Shown here one piece after another: positions 3,901 to 34,379 of a stretch of 64,000 nucleotides of DNA (the stretch's first letter is position 1; every line of letters starts with the position of its first letter). The translations under genes were made by a program, and so were the position numbers. The notes beneath the pieces are model-generated. The model saw only the letters and a list, made by a program, of their open reading frames with translations. It did not search any database and had not been told where the DNA came from. Location of the stretch: positions 930,001 through 994,000 of the forward strand of contig VJWM01000106.1 in assembly GCA_010909165.1 (NCBI GenBank). Reading direction: 5' to 3'. Source of the stretch: Anthoceros angustus. Its lineage: Eukaryota > Plantae > Anthocerotophyta.

Positions 3901-6442
3901 TCATTGTCGATCACCGTCTGGGACTGCCCTCACATGCGGAGTGTTGGGCTCTTCGGGAAGAACCTCAGCCACCCAGTACTCCTTCAGGCACACCAAGATC
4001 TTCTCGTGGTTGAATGGTCCATCCTCGTGGTCAGCCAGCCTGCACTTCCACCTCATTCCGTTGATGATCCTCTTAACAGCAATGAGGACATCAACGTCAT
4101 CACGGATAATCACAGCACCCTCTGGGCGCAGAATGCGATCCATTTCCAATAGGATGTATGTGATGTCACACCTGGACAAAGGCAAAAGCCCATAGATCAG
4201 CACTCATTCATATGGATCAAATACCATGCAGAAGGGTGAGGGCGAGATGGACTATGTGCTTACTTCTCTTGGTACAGGGTGAAGAGCCTATTGGCATGAA
4301 TCATGTCATAGGTTCGGGGATATGTTGAGAAGGCCTCACACCTGTACAGCCCACCGGAGCGTTAGAGTAATACTGGACCGGCTATTGCGTGCAACACAGC
4401 AGCTCAGAGCCTGATAGATAACAGCATACCAGTCTTGGTAGGTGCCTATAAGCCCTCTCTCGTAGATGACACCCAGAGTGTCCTCTTGAATCTTCGGAGA
4501 TACCACATTCATCACCCAGCTCTTTTCTTGATCAAGAGCCGCTGCAAATCCACCCAACCCAGCATTCATGTCCATGATGTTCCGATAGCGGCCTTGAGCT
4601 AGAAGATTGACGAGCCGCTGCCTGTAATATGTGAATCGGGTCTGCCATAGCTGAGTATCCTTCTTATAGGACTCTGCGGTCACTGAAGGCAATGATCCAC
4701 CAGAGACTCTTGGAGGTACTTCAGTTAGGCGATCCGGCCATCGAGCCAATTTGCCTCCCGCAATAGCTTTCCTATGAATGATGGCTGGCATCGGTGTGAT
4801 GCAGGGTTCCATTTTCACATACCTGTGCAGAAGCGAAAGCACAAAGGTTTAGTCACTCACGGACCATGTTCACATGCCACTGTGCTCCAATGAGAGACCT
4901 ACCACGCATCATCAGGGTTGCCCTGATCGGTGCAGAAAGGTGGATTGTTCTCAAGCTGGTTATGCCTTTTCGCCTCCATGCATTCCTGGTGGTTGACGGG
5001 TTTCTGCCAGACAGCAAGGTTTCCCTTTTCTGCCACCTTGGTCCAGCAAAGACGCCTGGCAAGGTCCTCGATAGCATCCATTTCAGCCTTGAGGTCCTTC
5101 TTGGTCCTCTGCCAACCTTTCCAGTGTGCTTGCCAATTCACAGGCGGGCCAGACAAGATCCAGAACCCACCAGGCCTGAGCACTCGGTCTATTTCAGCCA
5201 GATACAGTCCATCTGCAAAAGGGAGTGATGATAGCAGTCAGAACCAAAATCCAGGATCATGCACGAGCCACCAACGGCCAGCTCACGTATCTCACTCACC
5301 ATAATCCTTCCAAGGAATGAGGCACCGAGAGCAGTGCGCCAAATCGAACGACCTGGCAGGATACGGTAACTTGATGGATGCCATCGTCACAAGCATGGCA
5401 GGAACCCCACGTTCCAGAGCAAACTGAACCTGCGCTTCATGCGTGTCTCTCGGTGCGAAAGACATGGTCAGGACCTTCCTCTTAAGGAGGTAGGCACCAA
5501 AGCTGGCCACCTACACCAACGGCCAAGAGACAATGCATTCTCAGTACACTGTAGGCCAAGTACTGAAACAACAACAGACTTCACACCCAACACCAGCAAA
5601 CACAAGCAGTACCCCGCATCCAGTATCCAACGCAGTGCGGATTTGGCCCTTATTCAGATCCACAATCGCATTGATGTCATCGATATAAGCATCAGCCCCG
5701 TGAGGGAACATAGTCCCTCCCCCGGGAAACCGAAACCGGTCCCCCTCATACTGGATCCAGTTCTGGATAGCCTTCTCCACCGTGAGCTCCTTGTGCGGCA
5801 CGTTGGCGAACCAGGACTCGTCCCGACTCTGCGGCCAGGGGAAGGGGTTCTTGTACCCCACAGGCGCGGGCACGAGACACTTGATCAGCTCCTCCTGCAC
5901 GGGGCAGTGCCTCTCCCGGTAAATCATCCTCTCACGGGGGAAGGGCATGGACCGCTTGGCATCCTGGCACGGCGTGTACTCGCTCAGCGAGACGTCGCAG
6001 CTGGGAAACACCTCCAGCTGCCCGCCCTTCCCCTCCCCCCCGGACCCGTGGTGCGCGGAGAAGTCCAGCGAGCTGCTGCAGGCCGAGGCATCGGAAAAGA
6101 CGCCGTAATCCGGCGTCGACCACCCCGCCTGCCAGTACCCCACGAAGTAGCTCACCAGCGAGAGCGCCAGCAGCCCCGCAATGTGCACCCAGCTCCACCT
6201 CCTCTTCCCCTCCTGGTGGTGCTTGGGAGACGAAACTCTGCCATTGGCCCCGTTCCCTGCCAAGAAACCATCCCCTCAGTCCCTCGAGTCCCTTCAATCC
6301 CTCCAATCCCCCTCAATCCTTCCTCCCCTCCCTCAGCTGCAAACAAGCACAAGGCACGAATGCAAAGATCCGACTCCTCACCTTCCAGCGGGAACAGGTC
6401 CTGGATCTTCTGGTACGCATGGGTCACCCCCTGCTGGAACAT
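3901..6442 (-). CDS. Spliced gene for a Golgi type-II SAM-dependent methyltransferase, DUF248/Methyltransf_29 (PMT2/PMT15-18-like putative pectin methyltransferase)
   Basis: N-terminal TM helix ([22 protein letters not shown]), [37 protein letters not shown]|[93 protein letters not shown]; stop at 3901-3903. Probable exon 1 is ATG 6442 to GAAG|gtgag (about 6384), which splices in frame to ttggcag|ggaac (about 6256). Confidence 0.92.
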
Positions 6443-6871
6443 TACATCCCCCTCCTGTGCCGCGCCGAGGCCTGGAAGAGACAGCCGCAGGCGCGCCGAG
6501 GAGGCGGTCGCGCAGGAAGCCGGCGCGATATGGGATAAATCAGACGCCGCGTTCGGGCCGCGGGAGGCAGGGCATGCTGGAATCAAGAAGGGCTTCGAAG
6601 GAGCGCGGACTGCAGAGGTGGCTAGGACTCGACGAGACTGGCTTTCATACGACACGAACCGGGGCCCAGGCCCGCCCAGGGCTCGCCCGGGCCCGAGGCT
6701 GCCTGCCTCGGGCACGAGCCAGACAGAGAGCGCCCCGGCCGCGGCCCCCGGCCCCGGCAGCGGCCCCCAGCGGGCCGCGACAAAAAATCGGACCCGCTCG
6801 CTCTGCGAAGTACACTAAAATGTACGATTGAGGGGATTGAGGGGATGGTCCCTTGGCAGGGAACGGGGCCA
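6245..6871. repeat. 34-bp inverted repeat pair (6245-6278 / 6838-6871) bracketing the 5' end of the PMT gene
   Basis: tggccccgttccctgccaagaaaccatcccctca versus the reverse complement of tgaggggatggtcccttggcagggaacggggcca: 32/34 identical. Confidence 0.85.
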
Positions 6872-12457: not shown

Positions 12458-14195
12458 GCTTCGTGTTTGATTTGCCTACAAGAAGCAACAGTGCTTAAAC
12501 ACCAGACTCAAGTATCCAGTAATACCTTTCCGTCGACATTAGAACCCGTTTTCCTAACTTACCCTATAAAGTACAATATGACCTTATGGGAGTTTTAGTA
12601 AGAAGCCTTGTATGAGAAGCATGCAGCCCCAAATCTAGTTAGTAAGTTGTAAGTAGTGGTGATAAAATTTAGCTTAGGGCTTAAGGAAAAAAGTCTGCTT
12701 TAAGCAGGACTTCTATAGGCAGTTAGCCTCCCTTCTTTAGATCTTTAACAATGGATGGAAGACCTTAAGGTGTTAGACATTTAAAACTAAATGCAAGACC
12801 TTCAACTGTTATACTCTTCCAATATTCATCCTAATTGGCTGGTAGGAACTTACTCCTTGAATGGACAAAGTGTTCAAGGATCATTTATAATTAATAAAAC
12901 TTTTAATTATTTATTTATTTATCCACCACAATTGAACCTGTTTACTTAGTTAAGTCCACGGATAGTCATTGGATTTAGCATAATCTTATTTATGTATCAT
13001 TTACATGCCATAGCGACTTGCTCGCGTGAATTAGACATGCACCGTGACAGCGAGGGTCCGACCCTCTGAGGTTTTCTTTGAAAACATATCTATGAATTTT
13101 GTAACTTGAAGATTATGAACCTAATATTCTCAATTAGGGAGGGACAATTCTAATGTCTTAACCTTTTTTATTTTTTAATTATCAATTATCATTTAGCCCT
13201 TCATACGTTCAAGAGAGCAATGACTTAGCTTCCAATTAAAGAGGTTTCCATTTATAGAGGTGCCATTTATGGAGGGCGAATTGTGCATACACAAACACAT
13301 ATCCACTTTTGATTATTTTTATTAAAGAAAATCTCCATAGAGAATATTCATTTGTTCCATTGACCTTATCGTGCTAGGTATTCATTTCTGAGGCCACATC
13401 AGCGCCCCCGCTAGAGCACAGTGCACACTAGCGAACGCGTGACTTGCAAGCGTAAGCCAAAGCAAAGCGGAGTCGGAGAGTGTGGACCGTAGGCTCCCCC
13501 CCTTAGGAAGGTAATGAGCTAGTTTTTTGTTTTTTTGTTAGTGTGGAGTGTGAAATAAGGCGAGAAAGGGGAAATAAGACCGGGACGGGTAAGAAAGGGA
13601 TGAACGACCGAAGCGCCTAAGGACGGGGGACTCCGGACCGTACTCCAAAGTAGACAGGGTGACTCCGGACCGCACTTCGGAGCGGCCTGGGGGACTACGA
13701 ATCGCACTCCGGAGTAGACCAGGGTGAGTCTGGTCTGCACTCCGGAGTAAGTCACGATAAGTACGCCGGGAAAGGTAACTTTGGAACAGGGAGCGAGTTT
13801 TGGCAAGGGGTGCCACGTGGACGGTGCTGAGAGGGGGACATGCATGCAGCGGACCAGGACCGTAGGGTTGCCAGTGGCCGTTATGGGCGGGTAACCACGC
13901 TCCGGGTACATGCGCTAGAGTAAGGCTAGAGTAAGGCTAGAGGCAAGAAGAGGAAGCAATGCAGACTAGCGACGGGCGCGGTGACGCCCCGCCGGTTACT
14001 CCCGACGCTCGACGAGAGAGAAGGCCATTCTCTCGACCACCGGCGCTAGCCACCGTGCTCGTGCACCGCTCGGCGCTATCTCTTCCGCGCCTGGCGCATT
14101 ATGAGCGACCCTCTTCGCGAATCGGCGTCACGCGGAGTGCAGAAGGAGAGTTGTCGGTCATCAAGCCACAATAGCAGACCAGGAGGCGCGCAATT

Positions 14196-17100
14196 ATGGG
14201 GCCCAAGAAGGCGGCGGAGGTGTGGGAACCCTGGCATCTAGTGGAGAAGAACATCGTCACCAAGCGCTACCCGGACTTCGGGCCTTGGCTGGAGGAGGCC
14301 GAAGAACTGGTGCAGGACTGGCACCTGGACATCTTCCACGGTTTAGACGTTTGATAGCGTCACGTTGGTCCGGGAATACGCCCGGAAGATGTTGGAGGTG
14401 GCCAACAAAGCGATCCGCTCCAAAAGTCTGAGGGAGGACCCAAGGAGGTGGACCGTGGAGGTCCTACGGGCGGTTTACAACCGGCCGGTGGAGGAAATTG
14501 GGGGGGTGGTGCCGGAACCCCTCAAGGTGAAAGGGAGGGTGGAAGCCGCCAAGGCGGCGCTTTTGAGGCCGGGGACGCAGCGGTCCTCGAATGGGTGGTT
14601 GATGTCGGACCTATTGGACCGCCGGGTGAGAGCGGTGACGAAAGTCATCGTGCATTGGAACATGCTCACTAAGGTGGATCACCTAGGTGACAATCTGCTA
14701 GTGTTCCTCCACGCCCTGCAGAGACGGAAAAGAGCGGACTGGGGAAGGATCATCTTCGCCCGGATCAACCAGAGGCTGGGCGAGGCAGAAGTCTGCCTCC
14801 CCACGCGCCGTTTATCATCCACGTGTGGGGGCACCTTAACCTCTTGAACGAAGGGGAAGAGGAGCGAGCGCTCCAGAAGGGGTTGGTGACCCTACCTAAG
14901 ACGGAGCGGGAAGGAAGAGCACCGGAGCCGGAGGGCCGCCCACCCAAGACCAGGCGGGGCCAGGAAGATGAGGATTGGGAGGGGATTCCGGACTCCATAC
15001 GACTGGAACGGACCCCCTCGCCGCCCCAGGAAGTATGGGAAGAAATTCCCGCTTCCCTCCTCTTAGTCCCTCCACCGGAGCACCCCACGCCGGAGGAGAC
15101 TACGAGGAGGGAGGCGGTGGTCGCGCATGCATCAAAGAACCTATGACGGCCCCAGCCACCGAACCCCGCAGGATTAGAAGGGAGGCAAAGAAGAGGAAGA
15201 CAGCCCCCACCACCGCGGCTCCCAGGACCGCTCCGGTCCCTCTGCCCTTGCCAACGGAGCGGAGGCGGCGGAGGCCGAGGAGGCAAGCGAGAAGAGCTTA
15301 AGCCGAGATGCGCCTGGGGCGGACGACATGGGTAACCCACCCCGAGCCCGGCCCCATCACCAACTGTGAGGGGAAAGCGAGCCAGCTCCCGGACCTCTTC
15401 ACCACCTCCCGGATCCCAAGAGAAGACGGGTGGAGAAGGAGTGCCAAGCTGCTGGAGGTGGAAACTCCGACCAAAATACTCGGGACACGAGGGTCCGGCT
15501 GGGTCGAGTCCCTAGTCTAGCCTCCCTACAGTCCTCGGGCGGCGGTCCCCATCGGGGGTGACTCAGCCCCTTCACGGGTATCAGAGCCGTGGAAGAAACA
15601 CGGAGGGTGCTTTGGGGGCTCTGCGGAACGGCAGAGAAGGCCCAGGAAGTGGAGGCCACCAGACAAAGGATGGTGGAGCTTCAGGGCCAGGCGGAGGCGG
15701 CCCAAGCGGCCAAGAGAAAGGCGGAGACCCTCGCGAGAGTCGAGGAGGAGAAGCGCCGGGCGGCCGAGTCTGAGGCAAGGTCCGCCCAACAAGACAGAGC
15801 CAGGGTGGTCCAGCTGTGTGAACAACTGAAGCACGCACAGGAGGCACATGCAAAGGCGGAGGACCTTTGTAGGCGGAGAGGAGCGGCCCAAGAAGAGGCG
15901 GAGGAGGCAAGAAGGCAGGCGGAGACGACCAAGGACCTGGCCGAGACCGCTCGGCAGGAAAAGCACCAAGCCTAGGAGACACAGGTGAAGGGGGGGCGCA
16001 GAGGTAGGCCTTGGCCAAGCTGCACAGGACACCACGCGAGATCAACCGGTGGAGGGAGGCGGAGGAGGCGGCCCAAGCGGCCAAGAGAAAGGCGGAGGAG
16101 GGAGCAAGCACAAGCCGTGAAGAAGAGAGGAGGCCAAGCACCCGGAGATGGAAGACCGCACAAACAGGATACGGAGGAGGGAGGCGGAGGACCGAAGGAG
16201 ACCACAGGCTGCAGCCTGTGTAATCTGAGGAGAGCGGAACGGGGACCTCCAAAGAAGAATCGAGGACCACGAGAGGGAGATAGAGTGGCTCCAGCTCTGT
16301 TGGAGGGCGGAGGAAATTCGGCGGCGAAATAAGGAGCAGGACATCGCCGAGTTGGAGAAGGACTTGGAGAAGCCAGGAGTCGGGCAGAGCTGCCGGACCG
16401 CCTGGAAAGGGAGATGGTGGCCCTCCAGGCAAGAATGGATGGCGGGGAGAGAGCTCTGAGAGAGGAGCAGAAGTTGCTGGTCCGGCTGCGGAAGGCGGAA
16501 GGGGAACGTCGCGCCATGGCCCGTAAGTTGGCTGAACTGCAGAAAAAGCGGTAGGAGGAGGAGGAGGCCAAGGAGAGGAGGCAAGAAGAGGCGGAGGCGG
16601 CCCCACTCGAGGAGGAGGCCATCCAACAAGTTGACTCGGATCTGACCTCATGTGAGGAAACGGCCCAACAAGCCACCAAGCACGCCCAATTACCAGAGCA
16701 CCTCTGGAGGAGGGAATATCGGGTGCTCCGGACCCATGTGGAGGAGGCCATCCAACAAGTTGACTCGACCGCCTACCACTGCGGAGCTCCTGCTACTGAG
16801 GTCTGCGTCTCACCCCAGTTGGAAGGCCAAGGAGAGGGCCAAGGGAAGGAGAGGAGGCGGGCCAAGGGAGAAGAGGGCCAAGGGAAGGAGACCACAGGCT
16901 GTTTGGGGACGAGAGCAGCAGCGAGGAGGGAGAGCGCCCGGGCGAGAAGGAGGCGATGGACACCACCCGGCAAGAGGTAAGTCCGCCACGCACTGCCCGG
17001 GAGGAAGGAGAGGGGGTCTCCGAGCAGGCCAAGGGAGAAGAGGGCCAAGGGGAAGGAGGTTCGGAGGGTGAACCCGGACCCCCGGAAAAGACCCTGGGTA

Positions 17101-17246
17101 AGGATGCCCAGAAGTCGGCGAGGCCGGACCCTGAGGTCCGGACTCCGGAGGTGAGGCCGAACCTTGAAGTCCGGACTCCGGAGGTGAGGCCGGACCCTGA
17201 ATTCCGGACTCCCGAGGTGAGGCCGGACCCTGAGGTCCAAACTTAG
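14196..17246 (+). pseudogene. LTR-internal coding region (frameshifted): Trp-rich N-terminal domain, Pro-rich linker, E/K/R/A coiled coil, conserved C-terminal motif; function unknown
   Basis: MGPKKAAEVWEPWHLVEKNIVTKRYPDFGPWLEEAEELVQDWHLDIF, then (other frames) VREYARKMLEV...NMLTKVDHLGDNLLVFLHALQRRKRADWGRIIFARIN, coiled coil 15589-15975 and about 16340-16600, then PEHLWRREYRVLRTHVEEAIQQVDSTAYH. The same motifs recur in both LTRs of the 38555-53278 element. Confidence 0.75.
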
Positions 17247-17280
17247 GAGGCGAGACCGGACCCCGAAGTCCGGACGCAGG
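17122..17280 (+). repeat. 33-bp tandem repeat (CCGGA-rich) inside the solo LTR, about 4-5 units
   Basis: ccggaccctgaggtccggactccggaggtgagg units, translating as RPDPEVRTPEV repeats. Related shorter repeats occur in the other LTR copies (about 39540-39640 and 48860-48960). Confidence 0.85.
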
Positions 17281-17348
17281 AGTGGGGAAGGGTGAGTGAG
17301 GGTCACCTCACCACCCAGCAGTAGAAATTTCTGCAGTGGACCCACCAA

Positions 17349-17741
17349 TGAAAGTTAAGACGACCACACCAAGGGTGCGAATGTTTGAATCATGAGCAGG
17401 TAAAACGCTTTGAGGATGTGAGCTTGTCCTTTTGCGAAAGGGTCTATAGATATATCAGCCTGGCATTGGCATATTCCTAAGATATCCTATTGGCAAGATA
17501 TGCCGAAATATCCAAAGAATACACTATAATATGCAAGGAATATGCTAAAGCATATAACTTGTGTTTATCCACTTAGTTAATGCTAACCATGTTTAATTAA
17601 CAGTAATCGATGCTTAATTAACATAACCACTTCATATTAATTAATTAATACTAATTACTTACTTAATGATAAGTCATTAGATTAATCAATGCTAGATATA
17701 AATGAATTTAACATAAATCAGCAGCACTATCTCTTTCTAGA
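17349..17741 (-). mobile_element. AT-rich insertion in the solo LTR, homologous (antisense) to the LTR of the DNMT/PHD Gypsy family
   Basis: The reverse complement shares blocks such as ttatgttaattaagcat, gttaattaaacatggttagca, ctaagtggataa, atatgcttt(a/g)gcatattccttgcatattatagtgtattctt and ccaataggatatcttaggaatatgcc with 19123-19654 and 61768-62311. It is absent from the other two giant LTRs. Ends are approximate and no clean TSD was found. Confidence 0.7.
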
Positions 17742-18017
17742 ATAGAGGGGGGGAGAGGAGGACTTGGTGGTCATCGGTTGTCGCCTGTAGGGCTGCACCC
17801 GACAAAGTCTCAGAAGAGGAGGCCCCGCGATCGCAGATCATCCGATTGGGTGCGCCGCATTGCCCAGCTGGGATTGGGCCCCGCCCTGTGAGGAATCCTG
17901 GGCACCCCAGCCCACCGCGGAATGGGTAAGCTACGAAATAGTGGGTTTGGGGCTAGGGCACCGAAATGGACAATGTTCCGAATAGGAGTGTAATAAAGAC
18001 GCCTCCTCAGGGCATAG

Positions 18018-18025
18018 TATAAGAG
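18018..18025 (+). promoter_or_regulatory. Candidate LTR TATA box (TATAAGAG), which would place the U3/R boundary about 4.5 kb into the LTR
   Basis: TATA-like motif about 630 bp from the LTR 3' end. The other two copies read GATAAGAG at the equivalent position, so support is weak. Confidence 0.3.
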
Positions 18026-19122
18026 GGCAGAGGCCGCTCTAGTAAAGCATCTTTCTTTTGGGGTTGATACCGCGTTCTCTTGCAGACCTTTGTGTGTCCT
18101 TCGTTAGCGCGAGGAAAGTCACGGCGGGCAAGACAACTCCCGAGATCGATCCAGTCCTAGTGACGGACCCTAATGTGTGGTGGTGTGTGTGCACCTGACG
18201 CCAGGACCCTTGCTCCTCCAGGCGGAGGGCCAGTCGGACGGACGGGCACGTGAGACCGTGAAGCTTCGAGAGGGCGTGCCAAGCCGGACGGAGAGGCCTG
18301 CTGAGCAGCGGTAGGTCGCCAAACCACCCATGATTCCCCAACTGGTAATGTGCGTAGTGAGTGTGGTAGGAGAGGCGGACTAGAAGAGACATAGGACTGA
18401 CTGGTAGCAAACGGACGTGAACGAGTCCTTAAACGTTTGGCCATGCCGGGCCTGTTCAGTGGACGCTTAAGAGTAATTAGGGAGTGAAAACAATCGCGTT
18501 GAGGTCTCGGATAGAAACTCGCCCCGACGACGAGGAGGGAATCGGGCCACGAGCGAGCAAAACGGAACCAATCATTCCTTTGAGAACGGACCTCTTACTG
18601 CAACGACACGGGACTATGCACGCCCGGTTGGCTGTCAGCGAAATTCACGCCACAGAGAGGCAGTGAGACAACGGGGGGAGTTTTTGTATTTCACATGATT
18701 GTAGACTTTGTCTGATAATACAGCGAGGGTCAAGGTTGCACAAGTTATCTCCATAGAGTTTCTGATCGAGAGGGAGATCGAGTTGGCTACGTTTATCTTA
18801 AAGAGGTGTTCGACTCCACACTAGAAAAGTAGTGGATAATGTGCACGTGCTAGATGATAGGTTAATATGGTGCTAAGGTGCTATTTATTAATATTTTGAA
18901 GAGGTATTTTTGAGAGTGAGAGAATGAGGCCATTTGGAGGCAAGGCAAGAAGCTAAGTTCATTAGATATTTCACATGATTTGGTGTTCCATTATTCGTAA
19001 CTTATATGCACAGATTTGCTCCGTTCCAGCTTAAGGCTATGGCTATCAAGCTTTCCTTATTGGACAAGCTCGTTTCGTTCCTACAGCTGTGTTAATCTTC
19101 CCTTGATGAGTAACCTAGGATC

Positions 19123-19685
19123 TGTCATGCCGTGTGATACTAATCTCTGCACTTGGGTTTAGTGTTTGATTAGCATTAATTAATCTAATTAATTATCTTT
19201 AAGTAAGTAACTAGGGTTAATTAATCTAAGGTGCTTATGTTAATTAAGCATTGATTAGTGTTAATTAATCCAAGGTGCTTATGTTAATTAAGCATTTATT
19301 AGTGTTAATTAAACATGGTTGCAATAGCTAAGTGGATAAGCTCAAGTAATATGCTTTGGCATATTCCTTGCATATTATAGTGTATTCTTAGGATAAGCTC
19401 AAGTAATATGCTTTGGCATATTCCTTGCATATTCTAGTGTAGGGTTTTGGCATATCTTGATCGATAGGATATCTTAGATGCGGTCTAGTATATATAGACC
19501 CTTCCATTGAGGACAAGCTCGGATCATAGCTTGTCCTCTAGATATCAATGCAAGGCGTTGTGAGGCCAAAGCTATGACTCGAGGCGATGTGTGAGGAATT
19601 TGCGTGTTGTTCGTGGGGAGGTGTGTTTGTGCCACGATGCGAGCTACTCCCTCCCCGTCTATACAAGCTATGATCCGCGTGCGCA
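19123..19685 (+). repeat. 5' LTR of the outer Gypsy (AT-rich)
   Basis: Highly similar to 61768-62311 up to ctactccctcc (19654). The end is uncertain; it possibly ends at cgtgcgca (about 19685). Confidence 0.75.
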
Positions 19686-23483: not shown

Positions 23484-26400
23484 TGTGGTGACCACATGGG
23501 TACTCCGACCCCCTTGAAAAGGAGTGTTTTTTTGTTTTGTGTTTAAGTTGTGAGAATCGTGTGGGGTTGGAATGTGAAGTAGGTTAGGAAATAAGAAAAG
23601 TCTACTAGAGCCTAGTAGGAGGAAGAGAGTCTAGTCCCGATCCCGGCCAGAACCTTGGAGGGTTGGTGCTCGGGGTTGCTACGCGTTGCTAGGGCCGTTG
23701 ATAACAGGACTGTTGCTATGACAACAACTCGGGAGCCCTGCTATGGTAGCAACCAAGTCGAGTTATTTTCCGATAAATTGGAAAACCTATTTGGGCCAGG
23801 AAATACCCGAATGAATGTGAGGAACATGGAGGTACTTGATCCATGCCTTGGCAGACCTGGATCCTACCTATGGGTTGGACTCTTATGGAGGAGACTTTCA
23901 CCACCCATCCAGGATTCAAGAGCTCACCGAGGAGGAGTACGGCTATGCGAGCACAAGAGAGAGGAGTCCAGCTGAGGAGGTGGAGATTTTATGGGAGAGA
24001 TTGCCCAACCAGCCAAGAGGGAGGAGAGCAAGAGGAACATGGGGCTAGGAGGCCTAGGAGGCCTGGAGAGGTAATAGGGTAAGTGAGAAATAGCTAAAGG
24101 CCCATGTGTTATAGAGAATCTTATCTCTCATAGTGGATGTAATTAAGAGATAGGCCTCTAGGATTGGTAGGCTAAGGATTGGTATTTTGGCAAGCCAAGC
24201 GCTTTTGTCGATCTTGGGTATAAGGCGGCCCTCTTGATGAAATGTAAGCAATGTTGGTTTAAGGTCTTGGTGTTTGGGGGCACGGGGTTTGGGGGTACGG
24301 ATCCAGTCGTAAGTCTAGACACTCTCTTTGTCACAGGAGAAGCGAAGACCACCAAGTTGCCTAGATCCATGTGGCGGATCCGAGGGTGGTGGAAAGCAAG
24401 GGAGGGAGCCTTGAGGTCTCCTTGGAGGGAGTTTCCAAGGTCAAGAGGAAGGGGTTGTGAAGCCGGGAGGCTGTCGACTCTTCCTCATTCCCTCTCTAGT
24501 CTAGTACTCACCTTGTGTTTGAGTTTTCGGTGTGTTGGAGGTTTGGTGTTTGGAAAATAGAGGGAAAAGTGAGCCTGTGAGGAGAAGTGGAGAATGCCGG
24601 ACATGGAGAGTTGCTGATTGCTGTTTGAGAGGGTAAGAAGGAATGGAGAAGTCTAAGTGATGTTTGTGTTCTTGAAGAGGAGTGAGTGGAGGTTGAAGAT
24701 CCGTGAGTGGATGAGGGAATGATTGCGAGGTGGAACAAGTATTTTGAGAGTTGGTGAAGGTCTGTAAGGGCCTGGATGAGAACCTTGTAAGGCTGGAGAG
24801 GAGCGTGGTGAAAGTGGAGATTGAATGGGGCGGTGAGGTGTGAGAACAAGGAGAGTTGAAGAGAGTTCTGGGAAACTTGGAGTGTGGGAGGGGCTGAGAG
24901 GCACCTCAAGGGGCTGTGAGAGCCGGAGGTCAGATGGAGCTTGGAAGGTGAGCCGAAGGCTGGAGGAGAGACAAGGAAGTCAAGAAGTGCCGTAAGAGAA
25001 AGGGGTAGTTTGTGTGAGCCCTTTAGTGAGTTGTCCTAGGTTTAGGTTTAGAGATTAGGTTAGGGCTGCTTGGGTTGTCCATAAATAGTGTGTGGAAAAG
25101 GTGACACGTGGCTAACTCGATTGGTGGATCTAACTTTGTGGATAGATAAGAGAGAGGTGTCCAACCTTATCCACTTGATCCCCAAGTGGGTCCCACCTTC
25201 TAATAGCCAGACCGATCCCAAGGTGGACCCCACGCTAAAATAGAGGGTGGTTGCTAAGATAGCAAGCAAGATCTGCCGTTGCTAAGGTAGCAAGTCGCGT
25301 GGCTAAGATAGCCCCAGTCGAGTGTTGTTAGGATAGTAGCTGTCTAGCTAGATGTTTTGGTGTCTGTGTTTGGTTGGATTGGCTATGTTTTGGTTGTCTT
25401 GACACGAAATCACTCCCTTGGGTACGAATCTCAAGTCTACAACGATAAAGAGGGTAAATGTGGCCTCTTTGTGACCACTTGGTTTAGAAAATCACTCCAC
25501 ATTTTGGCGCCGTTCGAGTGTCATTGTTGTCAAGACCTTAGAGTAGACTAACCTTGTCTAGTAGTGTATTGGGAGTCTTGAGTGTGATACATGGATGCTA
25601 CCCATTGAGTCTCGAAAGTTCGACTCGGTAGAGAAGACTCCGGAAGAAGACAACGCTGTGGAGCGAGGCGAAGGGCTGCACCGAGCCGAGGAGAGCACAG
25701 TAAACGTGCTGGAGGAGCCAAGAAGCAAACAGCAGCTGCCTAGGGGACGATGCCATCCTTGTCTTCGACCTCCGTCGAACTTGTGCGGCTGCGTGAACTC
25801 AAGAACTTTTGGACAGTTGCTACAGAGATCCTGTTGCTAGACCAACAATCGCGTTCGGGATAGTGACGTCATGGCGACTTGTTCCTTTTGCAATAACTAC
25901 TGCGCCATACCCATGTATGGAGAGAAGAAGGGTATGAAGATCCGACGAGTTTGTTGAACGCTGAGCAACTAACCATTGCAAATCGTGAACTGGGATCCGC
26001 ATTCTCTTCTACGGAGTTCTTCGGAGGGCCAAGTGGTACAAGAGGAGTACCTCAAGGCATCAGACGAACCTTCAACGAACAAGAAAGCCTTTTGTGAGAG
26101 GTTCAGGAATAGATGTAGAAGGCTACGTGTTGTCAAAGTTGGAGTTTTGAGGAGAAGAAGGAAGGAGACCTTGCAAGCTTATGTTGAGAGGTTTCTTAAC
26201 TTGCGTGACGTAGTGGTCCTCACTCGATTCTGCCATTCGGTGGTTGCTAAGGGGTTAGGTTAGATGGGCCGACATGTGAGGCAAGCGGAGAAGGACGTAG
26301 ACAAGGCCATCAAGGCGGCACTCAACTACGAATCCAACCCTTGGACAAGAAGAAGCACAAGAAGGAAAAGAGCAAGAAGAAGAAGTCCAAGCGAGGGAAG

Positions 26401-29400
26401 AAGGACAAGGGATCTTCGTCGGAGGAGGAGGAGAGTGACTCCTCTCAAGACTCAGACTGGAGGACTCTTCCTGAGGATGGCAGACGGAGGAAGAATCCTC
26501 AAGACGAGAGAGGCAGAAGAAGAAGAAGGTTGGCGTGCTAGAAGAAACCAGGCTCGAGGATCAAGGGAGCTGGCGCTAAACAAGAGGTTGCTAGTGCTAA
26601 GAAGGAAGTGGAACAAGTCAAGAGGGAGTACTCAAGGCATCAAGAAAAGAACCTTCAACGAATCAAGAAAGCCTTTTGTGAGAGGTTCAGGGAATAGATG
26701 TAGAAGGCTACGTGTTGTCAAAGTTGGAGTTTTTGAGGAGAAGAAGGAAGGAGACCTTGCAAGCTTATGTTGAGAGGTTTCTTAACATGGATCGTAGTGG
26801 TCCTCACTCGATTTACAGTGCCATTCTGGTTGCTAAGGTTAGATCCCGAGATGGGCCGACATGTGAGGTCAGCAAAGACGAGACAAGGCCATCAAGGCGC
26901 ACTCAACTACGAAGAATCCAACTGGACAAGAAGAAGCACAAGAAGGAAAAGAGCAAGAAGAAGAAGTCCAAGCGAGGGAAGAAGGACAAGGGATCTTCGT
27001 CGGAGGAGGAGGAGAGTGACTCCTCTCAAGACTCAGACTGGAGGACTCTTCCTGAGGATGGCAGACGGAGGAAGAATCCTCAAGACGAGAGAGGCAGAAG
27101 AAGAAGAAGGTTGGCGTGCTAGAAGAAACCAGGCTCGAGGATCAAGGGAGCTGGCGCTAAACAAGAGGTTGCTAGTGCTAAGAAGGAAGTGGAACAAGTC
27201 AAGAGGGAGTACTCAAGGCATCAAGAAAAGAACCTTCAACGAATCAAGAAAGCCTTTTGTGAGAGGTTCAGGGAATAGATGTAGAAGGCTACGTGTTGTC
27301 AAAGTTGGAGTTTTTGAGGAGAAGAAGGAAGGAGACCTTGCAAGCTTATGTTGAGAGGTTTCTTAACATGGATCGTAGTGGTCCTCACTCGATTTACAGT
27401 GCCATTCTGGTTTGCTAAGGTTAGATCCCGAGATGGGCCGACATGTGAGGTCAGCAAAGACGAGACAAGGCCATCAAGGCGCACTCAACTACGAAGAATC
27501 CAACTGGACAAGAAGAAGCACAAGAAGGAAAAGAGCAAGAAGAAGAAGTCCAAGCGAGGGAAGAAGGACAAGGGATCTTCGTCCGGAGGAAGAATCAGAG
27601 GAGAGTGACTCTCTCAAGACTCAGACTGGAGGACTCTTCCTGAGGATGGCAAGACGGAGGAAGAATCCTAAGACGAGAGAGACGCAAGAAGAAGAAGGTT
27701 GACGCTAAGAAGAAACCAGAGGCTCGAGGATCAAGGGAGCGCTGTAAACAAGAGGTCGCTAGTGCTAAGAAGGAAGTGGAACAAGTCAAGAGGAGGTCAA
27801 GTCAGAAGAAGGTGCAACAAAGAAGAAATGAAGATGGAGGAAATGATGAGCAAATTCGAGAAGTTTCACCTCAACGCAAGGAGCATGAGAAGAGGAGAGA
27901 GCGCATCCGCTCGGGCTGCTTTGTTCCACTTGGCCAGCCAGCCACACCAGTCCAATGGCCAAGGTGCACATGCTCGCCACGAGGAGGAGGAAGAGGATCG
28001 CGGAGGATACCCGGATCCGGAGGTTTCCAGGACAACAGATTCCCAAGACTCCATCCATCGATGCTGCGAAATTCCATGGGGTGGCATTCGTAACAACCAA
28101 GTGCCTGTGGTTGCTAACCAAGCAACGGTGTGGTTCGGCTACAACAGAGGCTTTGGTCATTATGCAAATAGCTGTCATCGCCACAGACAGAGCCAATGGT
28201 GACTACGAACGTGCAAGACGCAAACAACAGGTCATGTGGCGGGAGTGTCACTTGCCCAAACCGAGGAAGGCTCAATTGCTCAACCACCTGTGGTTCAAGC
28301 ATCCTCAAGGAGCTGCGCCATGCACGTGGAGGATGCCCTATGGCTTTGGGAGGATGCGAAGCCATGGTGTTGCGAGCTAGATGGACTGGGGGTGCAGGAG
28401 ACTACTACGGAGGCTGCAGCCATGGTCATGCGCACTAGGAATGAAAAGCTAGGAGGAAGCTGCGGAAGAAGAAAGAGACGGAGGTGCAATCACCAAAGTC
28501 CAAGAGAGCACTCCAAGCCCGGAGGGAACGGATCTAGAGGAGACACTTGAGAAGGAGAACCCAGAAGGAAGAATCAAGGAGTGAATCGCCTGGGGCCATC
28601 GAGAAAAGAAGTTCCGGAAAAGGGAGAGGAAACCCGAGTTTCCACCGGACGTCGAAGTCATGGAGATGATAGAGGAGGAATTGACCAAGACAAAGTCTCG
28701 AGCCTGATCCAGAGGCAGAAGTCCTCTCGTTAGCAGTTGCTAAGCAAACAACCGGACGTTGTTGCTAAAGCAACCGCTAGGGAAGAATCGAGGACCATTT
28801 AACCTTGCCAAGCCATCATGGATCAATTTGCCATCACGCTTGGTCAACTATTGAAGGACAACCTACGCAACAAGTTCGAGGCCTTGCAAGCGCAACCCAA
28901 GAGGAAGAGGCGATTGCCCAAGCCGGGACCAAGGGTGCTGACCCTACAACAACTAGTGTCCATGATAGACCAAGGGCCCGGAGTCGCAAGTGGAGATCAG
29001 TGTCATCAAGCGGGTTCCCGGATCGGATCCGGTGAACATCATGACGAAGCAAGGAAGCTTGGGTTGGACATTGAGCATACCACAGGTCGAGATTGGCGAC
29101 ATGTCAAAAATGCAGCACTGGAGAGCGAAGGAGTAACCACCATCATAGGGACCATTCCCTATCTCATGGACTATGTGGTTATCCGGACAAGGCGCCAGTG
29201 ACATCCTATTGGGAAGGACCGGCCGTGGCTCAAGATGCAAGATGACTTGGGGAGGAAGGAAGTGGCTTTTAAGCCAATGGATTGGGACCCCAAGACGAAG
29301 GAGGCGAATTTGTTTGAGTTGGAGCAGGATACCCTCGTGGGGAGACTCCTACTGAACGGAAGGATACACATCGTGGAGAAACATCCGACTGGAGGAAGAA

Positions 29401-32400
29401 GGGGAACTGGACAAATTTCCTTTTGCACATATCGCATGGTCGATGAGGAGGAAGAGTATAGGAGGGATATCCCTTACTCCCTCAATTTGGTGGACCGCTT
29501 TGGTTCATGGAGGACGCACCAGAGGAGGAGCTGCTAACAGGCTTGCTAAGGAAGCAGGCGCTTGCTAAGGAAGCACAGATTCACGACGGTTGCTAAGGAA
29601 GGGGCGAGGGGTCGACAGCAGTGAGGGTGAGCCAGGATCATTCGATTCACCTCGAGGACCTGGAGTGGGGATGAGGGAAGAGGACCTCGTGAACCGGAGG
29701 AAGGGTTTGGTGAGAGTTCAGCACCGTGGAGCGAGAATGGGTACAAGCGGACGAGATTAAGGATGTGGAGGTATTGCCCGAAGGTGCTGAAGTTTGCACT
29801 GGAACCAGTTGGAAGAAGGAATGAAACAGCTCCTTCGAGTTCATCGACGTGTTTGCCTTCGAGGTGAGAGATATGAAGGGATTCCCAAGAAGTGGGGAGC
29901 ATAGGATCGATTTGGAGCCGTGAGCGACTCCGTCGATTCCCAATACATGAACCCAAAGTACTCACTCAAGGTGAAGGAGCAGCATTGTACTTGAAGGCGG
30001 ACGTCATCTATCCAATCGTCAACACGGTGGGTGGCTCCGATCGTGTGGTTCAAGAAGCACGGAAAGATTCGAGTATGTACCGGAGGAAGCTCAACAAAGC
30101 AACCAAGAAGGACCATTTCCCCCGCCATTCATCGACAACATCCCGGACTTGGTGGTCGAAGATGTGTACTCGTTCTTGGCTGGGTACAATCATGCACTTG
30201 AGAGTGACTGCCTCTAACGCCTTCACGGATTGGGGACCTTCGCTTACAAGAGAAGTGCGTTGATTGACGGGCGCCGTTCCTTCATGCGGAGCATGGTTGA
30301 GATCTTCAAGGAGTATCTCCACAAGTTCATGGAGGTATTCCTAGATGATTTTGTGTGTTTGGGAGTGTGGAGGAGCACCGGATCACTTGCGTGCTTGGCG
30401 AGTGTCGTGAAACTCAACTTGCCTACATCCCGAGAAATGCTACTTTGGCATGCGGAGGGATTTTGTTGGGCAATTTCACGAGGCATCAAGTTGATCCGCA
30501 TAAGGTGAAGATGATTGTTGCCCAAGCCCCAACAACTCTCAAGGAACTCGGGGTTCCTTGGCATGGTGGGCTACTACGCTTTGTAACTTTGCTAGGAGGG
30601 CTGCTCCGACCATTGAGGAAGGACCAAGAGTGGACGACGGTGAGGAGGCAGATTTCAAGATTTGAGGACCACGTTGGTAACAGCCCCAACCCTCAAGGGA
30701 CCGGATTGGAGCAAGAAGTTCCATGTTTTACGTGGATGTTTCCGCCCGCCATTGGTACGTCTTGAGCCAGTGGATAAGAAGAGGGACTACCCGATCTACT
30801 ACCCTCGGGCAACTCACCGATCACGGAGCGCAAGTACACAACAATCGAAAGGGAAGCCCTTGGGATGGTGTATTCGATGAAAGTTTCGTCATTATCTCCT
30901 CTCCTATGAGTTTGTGTTTCCATGTTGACCATTTTGCTCTCAAGCATCTTGTCAACAAGGCGGATCTTCGGTCGCATAGCTCGTTGGATCTTCTGTGCAA
31001 GAGTTCACCTTCACGGTGGAGACACGTGAGGGGAGGAAGCATGTGAACGCCGACTACTCCCGACGGAGAAGGTGGAGTGATCAAGAAGATCATTTTCCGG
31101 ATGAAGCTTTCTTCGGAGGAGGATGAGGAGAGTGCTAGGCCCAATGCCAAGTTGATCGGAAACGGAGGTGCACCAAATGAGAAGGGAGGAGAAGTTTTGA
31201 GCCACCTATGAGGAGGTCTTTCGCTTTTAGGTCGATACCAAGACTGTACAACAGAGGTTGTTCCTATACTTCTCGCACTGTTGGCGAGACAAGTGGTAGG
31301 CCGATGGAGTTGAGAGGTTGTGGGTCAAGGATGGTCAAAAGGACCGGGTTCTCGGCCTTGCATGAGGAGGAGGCCGGAGGTCACCACAACGTGACTGTAA
31401 GAAGATCTTAGGCGGTGGTATTGGTGGCCAACCTTGCATAGATGCTAGGGAGTTCATCAAGCGTTGTGATGCATGTCAAAGGGTTGAAGCCAACCAGACC
31501 ACAGGGCCATTGGTCCCTATCCTAGCCTTGGCGCCCTTTGAGAAGTGGGGGATTGACTTCGTTGGGCCGATTCAGCCCAAGACCAAGGGGAGCCAATCCA
31601 ATATAACAGCGGACTCTGCATGGTGGCCAAGCTCAAGCCCTGCCCGTGGACACAGCGAATGTGGTGGCCAGGTTCTTGTTTGAGCACATCATCACAAGGT
31701 ACGGGTGCCCGTTGGAACTGGTTAGCGACAGGGGTACCCATTTCATCAACGAGGTGATCTCACACATGGTGAGGTACTTCAACATCAGCCATAGGAAGAC
31801 CACCCCCTACAACCCCAAAGCAAATGGACTCACAGAGAAAGCTAATGGATTGCTTTGCAGGATCCTTAACAAGTTGACCATCACCTACACCTACGAAAGG
31901 AACCGGAAGCTTCACTCGGCGTTGTGGGCGATAGGAGAAGGTGACCACAGCAGACTCCCTACTACCTCACCTATGGGCACTCACATGCCCATTGAGTTTG
32001 AAGTGCCAACGTTGAGAGTCCAAGAGCATAGAGGATGACGGTGGAGAGCCATTGGAGAGGCTCATAGGCTTTGTTCAGACATGGAGAGTAGGAACAAGCC
32101 TTGGCAGTCCTGAGCGTCAAGGAAGAGGAAGGAATGGCATGACCTAAGGCAAAAACAAGAGTACGTTGTTCGGGACTTGGCGTTCTTTGATGACACAGTA
32201 CATGCACTTCCCAGTCGCATCTTAGATGGATGGGTCCCTACGGTGCGCAAGTGTTCGACAATGGATCCATACACTGCGCAACTTGATGGACTGCAACCAG
32301 GTCAATGGTTGGCGCGTGAAGAAGTATTACCAATAAGTTGGCGGGACGCCAACAAATGAGAAGGGAGTATGTGGTGACCACATGGGTACTCCTCGAAAGG

Positions 32401-34379
32401 AGTGTTTTTGTTTTGTGTTTAAGTTGTGAGAATCGTGTGGAGTTGGAATGTGAAGTAGGTTAGGAAATAAGAAAAGTCTACTAGAGCCTAGTAGGAGGAG
32501 AGAGTCTAGTCCCGATCCTGGACGGAACCCGGAGGGTTGGGCTGCTCGACCTTAACGCGTTGCTAGGGCCGTTGATACAGGACTGTTGCTATGACAACAA
32601 GACGGAGCCTGTTGCTATGGTAGCAACCAAGTCGGAGTTATTTTCCGATAAATTCGGAAAACCTATTTGGGAAATCACAGAAATACCCGAATGGAAGTGG
32701 AACATGGAGGTACTTGATCCATGCCTTGACGGCCGGATCCTACCTATGGGTTGGATTCTTATGGAGGAGACTTCACCATCTATCCGATTCAAGAGCTCAC
32801 CGAGGAGGAGTACCCGGACTGTCAGGCAGCACAAGAGAGAGGAGTCCAGCGAGGAGGAGATTTTATGGGAGATTGCCCAACCAGCCAAGAGGGAGGAGAG
32901 CAAGAGGAGAACATGGCTAGGAGGCCTAGGAGGCCTGGAGAGGTAATAGGGTAAGTGGCCCACAGAAATGGCTAAAGGCCCATGTTATAGGTATCAAATC
33001 TTATCCTCTCATAGTGGGAATTGATAGATAGGCCTCTAGGACTTGGTAGGCTAAGACTGATTGGTATTTTTGGCAAGCAGTTTGTGGGCTGATCTTGGGT
33101 ATGAGGCAGCCCTCTTGATGAAATGTAAGCAATGTTGGTTTAAGGTCTTGGTGTTTGGGGGAAAACGGGGTTTGGGGGTACGGATCCGTGTAAGTCTAGA
33201 CTCCTTTGTCACGGAGAAGCCAAGACCACCAAGTTGCCTAGATCCTGTGGCCGATCCGCAAGGGTGGTGGAAAGCAAGGGAGGGAGCCTTGAGGTCTCCT
33301 TGGAGGAGTTTCCAAGGTCAAGAGGAAGGGGTTGTGAAGCGGGAGGCTGTCCGGACTCTTCCTCATTCCCTTCACTAGTCTAGTACTCACCTTGTGTTTG
33401 AGTTTTTCGTGTGTTGGAGGTTTGGTGTTTGGAAAATAAGAGGGAAAAGTGAACTGTGAGAGAAGTGGAGAATCTTTGGACATGGAGAGTTGATCAGGAG
33501 AGGAGGACTGGAGAAGTCATGAGTGCGTTTGTGTTCTTTGAAGAAAGAGGTGGAGGTTGAAGATCCGTGAGTGGATGAGGCGGAATGATTATGGGAGGTA
33601 GGTGAACAAGTATTTTGAGAGTTGGTGAAGGCTGTAAGGGCCTGGATGAGAACCTTGTAAGGACGGAGGTCTTGTGTCATGAAAGTGGAGATTGAATGGG
33701 GGGCGTTGAGTGTGAGAACAAGGAGAGTTGAAGAGAGTTCTTTGGGGAGACTTGGAGTGTGGGGAGGATGCGAGAGGCACCTCAAGGGGCTGTGAGCTGG
33801 AGAGGTCATGGAGCTTGGAAGGTGGTGAAAGGCGGAGGAGAGACAAGGAAGTCAAGAAGTCTTGCAAGAGAAAGGGGGTGGTTGTGTGTGCAACCCTTTA
33901 TCTTTGTGAGTTGTCCTAGGTTTAGGTTTAGAGATTAGGGTTAGGGCCGGCTGCTTAGGTTGTCCATATAGTGTGTGGAAAGGTGACACGTGGCTAACTC
34001 GATTGGTGGATCTAACTTTGTGGATAGATAAGAGAGAGGTGTCCTTATCCACTTGGATCCCCAAGTGGGTCCCACCTTCTATTAATAGCCGGACTGATCC
34101 CAAGGTGGACCCCACTCTAAAATAGAGGGTGGTTGCTAAGATAGCAACCGGGTACAGTTGCTAAGGTAGCAGGTCGGCTAAGATAGCCGTGTCCGAGTGT
34201 TGTTAGGATAGTAGCACAGTGCATCTGCTAGATGTTTGGTGTGAGTCTGTGTTTGGTTGGATTGGCTATGTTTGGTTGTCTTGACACGAAATCACTCCCT
34301 TGAGTACGAATCTCAAGTCTACAACGATAAAGAGGGTAAATGTGGCCTTTGTGACCACTTGGTTTGAAAATCACTCCAC
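23484..34379 (+). mobile_element. Nested non-chromovirus Ty3/Gypsy element (Athila/Tat-like), full length, 2-kb LTRs, inserted in the DNMT domain
   Basis: LTRs 23484-25501 and 32370-about 34379 start TGTGGTGACC and end CACTCCAC(A). PBS TGGCGCCGTT at 25505; PPT GAGAAGGGAGTA at 32358-32369; TSD CCAAG on the left and degenerate CCAG on the right. Internal gag with a zinc-knuckle remnant (about 28135-28180), RT (FMEVFLDDF about 30330), RNase H (about 30700-31050) and integrase (FEKWGIDFVGP about 31540; YNPKANGLTEK). Confidence 0.9.
26045..27792 (+). repeat. Tandem triplication of a unit of about 581 bp within gag of the 2-kb-LTR element
   Basis: gagta(c)ctcaaggcatc starts at about 26045, 26626 and 27207; copies 2 and 3 are nearly identical over their first halves. 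Confidence 0.9.

Follow-up and report, generated by a model that had tools for sequence, protein, structure and literature searches.

Remnants of a long sense-strand gene, probably lying in U3, in the giant LTRs of a Ty3/gypsy family from Anthoceros angustus

Retrotransposons possessing long terminal repeats (LTRs) are considered here in a 64,000-nucleotide stretch of nuclear DNA of the plant Anthoceros angustus (NCBI GenBank assembly GCA_010909165.1, contig VJWM01000106.1, positions 930,001 to 994,000 of the forward strand), hereafter the window, from the first letter of which all positions are counted. In the window, nested retrotransposons lie between a Methyltransf_29 gene and an open reading frame (ORF) matching a PHD-finger. 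The element of interest is a solitary (solo) LTR at 13481-18654, which probably belongs to a Ty3/gypsy family whose LTRs of 4-5 kb contain, on the sense strand, a long gene that is now broken, of which the first 300 or so codons were under selection and which is likely located in U3, i.e., the part of the LTR that would precede the start of transcription.

A selected reading frame in giant LTRs

The edges of the solo LTR read ...GAGAG/TGTGGACC...CGCCACA/GAGAG... (slashes marking the borders), i.e., termini of the form TGTGG...CCACA framed by a perfect 5-bp target-site duplication, which bears out the 5174-bp solo LTR with GAGAG duplication proposed in a first-pass annotation made from the sequence alone. 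No internal terminal repeats were found in it. It is related to both LTRs of a full element of 14.7 kb lying at 38554-53278 in the opposite orientation. The two LTRs of this full element are 74-81% identical over three high-scoring segment pairs (HSPs). The 3' LTR measures 4.2 kb and the 5' LTR 5.4 kb, the latter being longer largely because a unit of 494 bp is tandemly duplicated in it (49483-50716, 2.5 copies). Feature coordinates are collected in Table 1.

Purifying selection acted on the first 300 or so codons of the gene during the period in which the family was active and diversifying. At the nucleotide level, the solo LTR aligns with each LTR of the full element in four short HSPs, the longest of which (885 nt, 68% identity) starts exactly at an ATG common to all three LTR copies and located, in the solo copy, at 14196, i.e., 715 nt inside the LTR. 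The N-terminal region that follows exhibits the motifs RYPDFGPWLEEAE, WHLDIF, DPRRWTVEV, TKVDHLGDN, IHVWG, GEEERAL, EGIPDSIR, and EVWEEIP. The substitution test was carried out on this nucleotide-level alignment of 885 nt, which was not selected on protein similarity, with codon positions taken from the open pieces of the solo copy, in accord with the pattern of GC content by phase. Between the solo copy and the 5' LTR (14196-15073), the mismatches at codon positions 1, 2, and 3 amount to 34/263, 47/260, and 101/261, respectively (chi2 54.6, p = 1.4e-12). Since codon positions 1 and 3 have about equal GC content in the solo copy, this skew towards the third position is explained neither by composition alone nor by GC-dependent decay. 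The 5' and 3' LTRs of the full element, which belong to one insertion, were identical at integration and have undergone only decay since, served as control pair, and their mismatches are spread roughly evenly over the three codon positions (32/212, 37/218, and 43/214).

By the Nei-Gojobori method, the rates of non-synonymous (dN) and synonymous (dS) substitution between the solo copy and the 5' LTR are 0.164 and 0.986, respectively, over 230 codons, i.e., for 14196-15073, a ratio of 0.17 and thus below 1, as the first-pass annotation had anticipated for a gene. For the control pair, dN is 0.174 and dS 0.367 over 181 codons, i.e., a ratio of 0.47 and not 1, which tells against a literal use of such values, the method being biased low in sequence rich in GC at the third codon position; as such, the 0.17 is not to be taken at face value and it is the contrast between the two comparisons that counts. 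Given that dN between branches is no larger than that produced by decay after insertion, the extra divergence is essentially all synonymous. In blocks selected by tblastx, the shifted frames yield 3 and 8 synonymous vs. 74 and 71 non-synonymous differences, respectively, against 40 and 40 in frame. Regarding the strand, no antisense ORF of at least 80 residues was found between 13937 and 14764, and one antisense frame has its wobble position in common with the sense frame. With the N-terminal region closed to antisense reading and a conserved ATG in the sense frame, it is the sense strand that is coding.

Extent of the reading frame and its product

Downstream of the N-terminal part, the reading frame can be followed in the solo copy by its periodicity, by the phase of its GC content and by conserved motifs. 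Period-3 power ranges from 3.1 to 7.7 in most intervals of 14081-17230 (99th percentile of shuffled sequence, 2.8), with peaks of 7.7, 4.9, 7.2, and 5.1, and does not rise above background over the initial 600 nt and the final 1.3 kb of the solo LTR, nor in a nearby ordinary LTR of 2 kb. The solo copy has the strongest signal, and neither LTR of the full element retains any of it. Codon position 2, marked by low GC content, shifts phase stepwise, and each step agrees with an open piece, namely (i) 14196-14351, (ii) 14347 to about 14790, (iii) from there on to 15146, (iv) 14972-15301, (v) 15562-15975, (vi) about 16333-16980, and (vii) 16800-17246, the last of which reaches a stop directly after a PEVRT-type repeat. 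Far from the ATG, motifs common to both branches are still found in sense frames, i.e., PWKKHG, LWGLCG, EHLWR..EYRV..HVEEAI..D..AYH, and the EVRT repeats, and tandem repeats related to the 33-bp repeat of the solo copy are present in the LTRs of the full element at 39548-39644 and 48866-48959. It is thus likely that the full frame of about 1017 codons corresponds to one gene. The claim, made at first pass, of a sense-strand coding region of about 3 kb in all these LTRs is borne out by the substitution test for the first 0.9 kb and, for the rest, is more weakly supported by period-3 signal, GC phase and motifs; in none of the copies is the frame intact.

The central part of the frame, rich in charged residues, gives translations such as LEREMVALQARM..ALREEQKLLVRLRKAE..MARKLAELQKK, i.e., predicted helices with spaced hydrophobic residues, and has near its end the conserved stretch EHLWRREYRV..HVEEAI..D..AYH, which is common to the 3' and the 5' LTR. 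From its sequence, the region at 15562-16977 is probably a coiled coil; a simple heptad count does not separate it from the N-terminal domain.

The protein is, as judged from sequence searches, an orphan belonging to no known family. None of 35 ORFs from the LTRs and the interior matched a Pfam family at E up to 0.01, and with the N-terminal ORFs and a putative relative, P0004, searched at E up to 1, only MapZ_EC1 came up, for P0004 (E 0.12), which was judged noise; as such, no Pfam match to PMD (PF10536), DUF1985, Transposase_28 or Athila ORF-1 was obtained at these thresholds (E up to 0.01 for the 35 ORFs and up to 1 for the N-terminal ORFs). A HMMER search with a 166-residue ORF against 1.84 billion representative proteins returned three matches at E up to 1e-3, two of which are repeat proteins and were rejected as spurious. 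The third one, P0004, is a protein of 244 residues with 30% identity over 108 residues (whole-library E 7.6e-4), motifs DPR.WTV and DWGR included, and is plausibly a distant relative of the LTR protein; it is a singleton from a single 4.9-kb contig for which no relatives of its own were found. The 52-residue N-terminal peptide, which is the most conserved, had no match among longer proteins at E up to 10, and no relative was obtained among Protein Data Bank sequences (best E 0.25). A scan of metagenomes with the N-terminal alignment gave 599 pattern matches, 0 of which were confirmed, and a degenerate pattern for the YPDFGPWLEEAE motif gave 0 matches. In a language-model atlas, the best scores (0.89 and 0.90) are to unnamed plant clusters, and PMD/DUF1985 clusters appear as sub-threshold neighbours (0.85-0.87) of both the window ORF and P0004, which are leads only. 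The possibility of a captured host gene was provisionally rejected, no host-like relative being present among the 1.84 billion proteins. A transmembrane segment is usually assumed from a mean Kyte-Doolittle hydropathy of about 1.6 over 19 residues; the highest such mean over 11 reading pieces is 0.83, in agreement with the earlier view that the product has no transmembrane segment and is not env-like.

Place of the gene in the LTR and competing interpretations

The frame lies wholly inside the LTR and two conserved non-coding blocks flank it. Upstream, at solo LTR positions 325-375 and about 350-390 nt ahead of the ATG, a block with GCCACGTGGACGG and CATGCA is present in all three LTRs; it was named G-box-like and RY-like after plant cis-element consensus sequences, and may be a candidate enhancer or internal promoter element. 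Downstream, the best-conserved non-coding block of the LTR, which includes TAATAAAG, spans about 100 nt at solo LTR positions 4500-4600, i.e., about 600 nt before the LTR end, where blastn aligns 114 nt with the 5' LTR at 80% identity and 353 nt with the 3' LTR at 70%. From its motifs, it is a candidate core for TATA box, transcription start and poly(A) signal, and the border between U3 and R would then be found there. Because this TATA- and AATAAA-like block is downstream of the gene, the latter would be placed in U3.

Should the gene indeed reside in U3, upstream of the transcription start, the genomic RNA would carry it once, after pol, i.e., in the place that the 3' extra ORF in sense orientation has in Athila/Tat-type elements and, with the polypurine tract located upstream of the gene, reverse transcription would copy it into both LTRs at each insertion. 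Translation would occur from a spliced or an internally started mRNA, with the G-box/RY-like block in front of the ATG. The product would be an accessory protein of the element composed of (i) a folded orphan N-terminal domain, (ii) a charged, probably coiled-coil rod, and (iii) a repeat tail, and may take part in the cycle of the element itself, be it as scaffold or as RNA- or particle-associated factor, but not as an envelope. A far-reaching extension, which we regard as doubtful, is that the lineage moved an accessory gene of about 1000 codons together with its own G-box/RY promoter and the poly(A) site of the LTR into U3, in such a way that each insertion would comprise two complete transcription units and each solo LTR a stand-alone gene, the orphan protein family spreading with the element, being able to outlive it and acting in trans on the whole family, for instance in anti-silencing or particle assembly. 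The functions in trans put forward at first pass, namely anti-silencing or nucleic-acid binding, are speculative.

Several points weigh against a long and selected gene in U3, namely (i) only two independent lineages enter the comparison, two of the three copies being the LTRs of one insertion; (ii) an uninterrupted frame of about 1000 codons is seen in no copy and was put together from pieces; (iii) the purine-rich, low-complexity DNA of the central part leaves all frames nearly free of stops; (iv) the mismatches by codon position in this central part, i.e., 6/42, 8/41, and 13/43 vs. the 5' LTR and 8/43, 7/48, and 10/45 vs. the 3' LTR, are uninformative; (v) the 33-bp tandem repeat feeds the period-3 signal at 16931-17230; (vi) past LWGLCG, both LTRs of the full element are in one frame and the solo copy in another; (vii) the protein has no detectable family and the two structure predictions are unusable (predicted local distance difference test scores, pLDDT, of 40.2 and 41.3); and (viii) it is from motifs that a place in U3, a mode of expression and a function are proposed. 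With respect to (i), the peptides quoted at first pass as conserved across three diverged copies are all present in sense frames, but they represent two independent lineages. With respect to (vi), either the parent copy of the full element was already shifted or the solo copy is.

An alternative that we hold to be unlikely keeps the gene real and places it in R/U5, with transcription starting within the first 700 nt of the LTR, past the G-box/RY-like block, and the gene as the first ORF of the genomic RNA; it would be an Ogre-type 5' extra ORF now inside the repeat, and the downstream AATAAA-like block would act as the poly(A) signal. The conserved GCCACGTGGACGG/CATGCA block ahead of a conserved ATG and the AATAAA-containing block about 3.8 kb downstream would suit such an arrangement, and a 5' position makes translation simple. 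Against it, R or U5 would need to be about 4 kb long and the minus-strand strong-stop DNA more than 4 kb, sizes that are far beyond those usual for LTR elements; moreover, there is no TATA-like motif between the G-box and the ATG, and a TATA-like word is found in the downstream conserved block.

It is a little less probable still that only the first 300 or so codons are a gene, followed by 2 kb of non-coding purine-rich repeats with a periodicity stemming from units of 3n nucleotides. The signature of selection is shown for 14196-15073 only, which would fit such a short gene, as would the near absence of stops from all frames of the purine-rich part, the presence of tandem and internal repeats, and the tolerance, in the 5' LTR, of a 494-bp duplication whose length is no multiple of 3. 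This duplication is, however, absent from the sister LTR and hence arose after insertion, in a dead copy. Furthermore, the period-3 signal is broad (15581, 16331-16630, and 16931), position 2 is low in GC as in the N-terminal part, the in-phase translations resemble charged protein helices whose hydrophobic residues are spaced, both branches keep motifs in sense frames as far as 2.4 kb downstream of the ATG, and the path stops directly after the repeat tail.

That the conserved stretch is not coding at all, but a cis-acting LTR sequence in which GC-rich composition opened a frame by chance, is very improbable. The lack of a Pfam family (0/35 ORFs and nothing meaningful for the N-terminal domain) and of any intact copy would be expected in that case, but neither the threefold excess of third-position changes at equal GC content of positions 1 and 3, nor the flat result of the same test between sister LTRs, nor the mostly non-synonymous differences in shifted frames (74 and 71, against 40 and 40 in frame), nor the existence of a distant protein relative (P0004) would be.

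All three LTR copies are pseudogenes. In the solo copy, a stop occurs 52 codons past the ATG, followed by at least six frame changes and further stops. A general assembly error as the source of these frameshifts was rejected, since five exon pieces of the host Methyltransf_29 gene, also in the window, are cleanly readable (5/28 ORFs tested); they cover profile positions 1-128, 129-197, 197-289, 290-417, and 442-506. By tblastn of six ORF pieces of the solo LTR against the whole window, three matches were obtained outside the solo LTR, all of them in the LTRs of the full element; hence, the window holds no further copies and the gene has no relation to gag-pol. That the solo copy still functions as a gene, acting in trans although its element is lost, is hardly credible: its coding periodicity is the strongest of the three and conserved candidate promoter and poly(A) blocks flank it, but the early stop and the frame changes speak against it and, with a host gene that reads cleanly, assembly error is an unlikely excuse. 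As such, the earlier statement that the gene is retained even in a solo LTR is correct insofar as a remnant is present; a solo LTR is simply an LTR, the copy is a pseudogene, and selection on solo copies is not supported.

Finally, the case that the first-pass annotation itself had named as able to overturn its claim, i.e., two tandem or nested elements with short true LTRs and an internal primer-binding site (PBS) or polypurine tract, was checked and is almost certainly wrong: the LTR size is unusual, the two LTRs are merely 74-81% alike and the target-site duplication of the full element is imperfect, but in none of the three 4-5 kb units do direct repeats connect one end with the other, the units contain 0, 1, and 2 PBS-like words, away from the repeat edges, the inner LTR edges are exactly where PBS-like and polypurine sites stand, the 5-bp duplication of the solo unit is perfect, and the frame of the Copia element serving as host is continuous across the whole 14.7-kb insertion. 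The absence of end-linking repeats and the position of the PBS-like words thus make these units true giant LTRs, and the unit at 13481-18654 a true solo LTR.

Related systems and genomic setting

Among retroviruses, MMTV sag and partly HIV/SIV nef are frames in or overlapping U3, which occur twice per provirus and are kept in solo LTRs. The LTR-borne gene is alike in being internal to the LTR, but the sequences are unrelated, it resides in a plant, and its place in U3 is a proposal; furthermore, with about 1000 codons, it would fill 60% of a 5-kb LTR. Among plant elements, the large retrotransposon derivatives (LARD, e.g., Sukkula of barley) exhibit LTRs of 4-5 kb and are not known to be coding in any part; the full element is in the same size class, but has a gag-pol interior and a gene in its LTRs. 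No report of a plant element with a gene inside the LTR was found in open-access papers and preprints. As such, giant LTRs are already known in plants, and it is the gene inside them that appears new, in a layout found described for some retroviruses but for no plant element.

For the non-chromovirus Ty3/gypsy elements of the OTA group (Ogre/Tat/Athila), Neumann et al. (2019; PMC6317226) report LTRs of "up to about 5 kb," additional ORFs of at least 250 codons, which are frequent, highly heterogeneous and for the most part devoid of known domains, tandem repeats within the elements, a 5-bp target-site duplication, and a PBS starting with TGGCGCC. The present family resembles OTA in its giant LTRs, orphan extra ORF, tandem repeats, 5-bp duplication and PBS start; it differs in that the ORF is inside the LTR and the interior is filled by gag-pol, and the reverse transcriptase (RT), RNase H and integrase are too decayed for placement in the OTA/Tat lineage (Ogre, Retand, TatI-III) by an additional RNase H (aRH) domain or by RT phylogeny. 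Vicient and Casacuberta (2020; PMC7264820) discuss additional ORFs for the internal region, and nowhere in their text is "the LTR" preceded by "in," "within," or "inside." The "env-like" aORF-3S of Athila, Bagy-2, and SIRE described there lies between pol and the 3' LTR and, if the present gene is in U3, both would occupy the same sense position after pol, both being orphans; the differences are that here the polypurine tract is upstream of the gene, that the gene is LTR-borne and duplicated, and that no transmembrane segment is present. According to Gao et al. (2012; PMC3485330), the rice elements Retrosat2, RIRE3, and RIRE8 possess LTRs longer than 3 kb and an orphan ORF0, which in Retrosat2 is upstream of gag-pol, evolves fast, has no relatives outside the family and shows a Ka/Ks below 1. 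Compared by description, Retrosat2 and the present family are alike in long LTRs and an orphan ORF under selection, and differ in the place of this ORF.

Plant transposon annotation treats LTRs as non-coding control regions and seeks extra ORFs only in the interior. If the proposed arrangement is true, annotation pipelines overlook a class of element-borne proteins, gene dosage doubles with each insertion, and solo LTRs, of which a genome has very many, might in principle stay coding units. A 3' extra ORF could simply be turned into LTR sequence by a shift of the polypurine tract, mirroring retroviral sag and nef.

Table 1. Position of the features of the solo LTR and of the full element in the window
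Feature	Position	Strand	Remarks
Solo LTR	13481-18654	+	5174 bp; termini TGTGG...CCACA; related to both LTRs of the full element
Target-site duplication GAGAG, left copy	13476-13480		Direct reading
Target-site duplication GAGAG, right copy	18655-18659		Direct reading
Conserved non-coding block, G-box-like GCCACGTGGACGG and CATGCATGCA (CATGCA, RY-like)	13810-13850	+	Three-way LTR-head alignment
Gene remnant in solo copy	14196-17246	+	About 1017 codons if read through; stop 17244-17246, 1.4 kb before LTR end
Conserved N-terminal domain region	14196-15146	+	Sole part with clear selection signature
Charged region rich in Glu/Arg/Ala/Lys/Gln	15562-16977	+	Predicted helical; period-3 power 4.9-7.2
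33-bp tandem repeat, 4.9 copies	17120-17282	+	PEVRT-type 11-residue repeats, C-terminal end
AT-rich stretch	17420-17700		GC about 0.2-0.35; without counterpart in the other two LTRs
Best-conserved non-coding block, GTGTAATAAAGACGCC ... (T/G)ATAAGAGGGC ... CTAGTAAAGCATCTTTC	17980-18080	+	Three-way LTR-tail alignment
3' LTR of full element	about 38554-42751	-	About 4.2 kb; carries gene remnant too
Internal region of full element	42752-47905	-	5.15 kb; decayed gag, RT, RNase H, integrase; Ty3/gypsy order
Polypurine tract GAGAAGGGAG	42754-42763	-	Followed by TA, then 3' LTR; direct reading
PBS-like site TGGCGCCGCTGGGAATGA	47884-47901	-	4 nt past 5' LTR; direct reading
5' LTR of full element	47906-53278	-	5.37 kb; gene remnant, ATG at 52554-52552

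In the full element, the 5' LTR keeps the termini TGTGG...CCACA, and at the outer end of the 3' LTR a CG stands where the terminal dinucleotide is expected, or 2 nt are lost. Read in element orientation, TGGCGCCGCTGGG... begins 4 nt beyond the 5' LTR. The flanks CTTCG and CTTAC form an imperfect duplication (3/5 positions), and the integrase frame of the Copia host is broken by the 14.7-kb insertion and taken up again on its far side. No trace of an extra ORF was found in the interior, nor is there room for one, as gag-pol fills the 5.15 kb. This interior is colinear over 16 tblastx HSPs with that of a neighbouring Gypsy element (23484-34379), in the order gag, RT (motifs LNPKYS.KVKE and PEKCYFGM), RNase H, and integrase (motifs VSDRGTHF.N.VI and PYNPKANGLTEK.NGL). 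From such motif-level similarity, the domain order RT - RNase H - integrase assigns the full element to Ty3/gypsy. Pfam searches of its interior, including three read-through frames with stops as X, gave 0 matches, as did those of the read-through frames of the neighbouring interior, for which a weak rve match (E 2.3e-4) is below the Pfam cut-off; the identical read-through search did detect gag, Pol_BBD, rve, and RVT_2 in Copia. The RT fragment had no relative among longer database proteins.

The neighbouring Gypsy element, in plus orientation, has ordinary LTRs of 2 kb (86% identical) and a PBS starting with TGGCGCCGTT, and agrees with the full element in its TGTGG...CCACA ends and in the polypurine tract GAGAAGGGAG-TA before the 3' LTR. 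Between its LTRs, which contain no gene, and the giant ones there is no nucleotide similarity at E up to 0.01. With related elements either possessing or lacking the LTR gene, such a sister lineage is helpful for tracing the entry of the gene. Of note, a 581-bp tandem repeat (three copies, 88-100% identity, 26039-27793) occupies the 5' part of its interior, in or near gag.

The Copia host element (35785-57584, plus strand) is bounded by AT-rich LTRs of 219 bp (35785-36001 and 57366-57584), with a PBS TGGTATCA.. and gag, Pol_BBD, rve, and RVT_2 matches in several frames. Its LTRs are 98.2% identical over 219 nt. Across 4391 aligned sites, the LTR pair of the nested Gypsy has 474 mismatches, and gaps are opened 323 times, i.e., an indel about every 14 nt, with 216 transitions vs. 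258 transversions (0.84) and evenly spread differences. Since it is inserted into Copia, the nested Gypsy is the younger of the two, yet its LTRs are far more diverged. Possible causes of this paradox are ectopic conversion, conversion between the Copia LTRs, an error of the local consensus in a GC-rich repeat of high copy number, or a strongly raised mutation rate. Dating by LTR divergence is unsafe for the full element, and can fail for GC-rich giant LTRs.

The Methyltransf_29 gene, putatively of pectin methyltransferase type, is located at about 3904-6275 on the minus strand in five exon pieces, the first of which is very GC-rich (GC 0.59, strong period-3 signal). Antisense to this first exon, an open frame of 482 codons (5370-6815, plus strand) without Pfam match most likely arises as a side effect of the GC-rich coding sequence opposite to it. 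The ORF at 61066-61653 (plus strand), with its PHD-finger match (E 8e-7), is possibly an exon of a host chromatin gene, and adjoins a copy of a dispersed AT-rich repeat of about 540 bp. The copies of this repeat at 19131-19654 and 61771-62311 are mutually 91% identical, and a reversed piece of 190-280 bp is present inside the solo LTR, where the stretch at 17420-17700 is 82-93% identical to them in reverse orientation. The repeat is probably a small non-autonomous element, and the stretch in the solo LTR probably a small secondary insertion.

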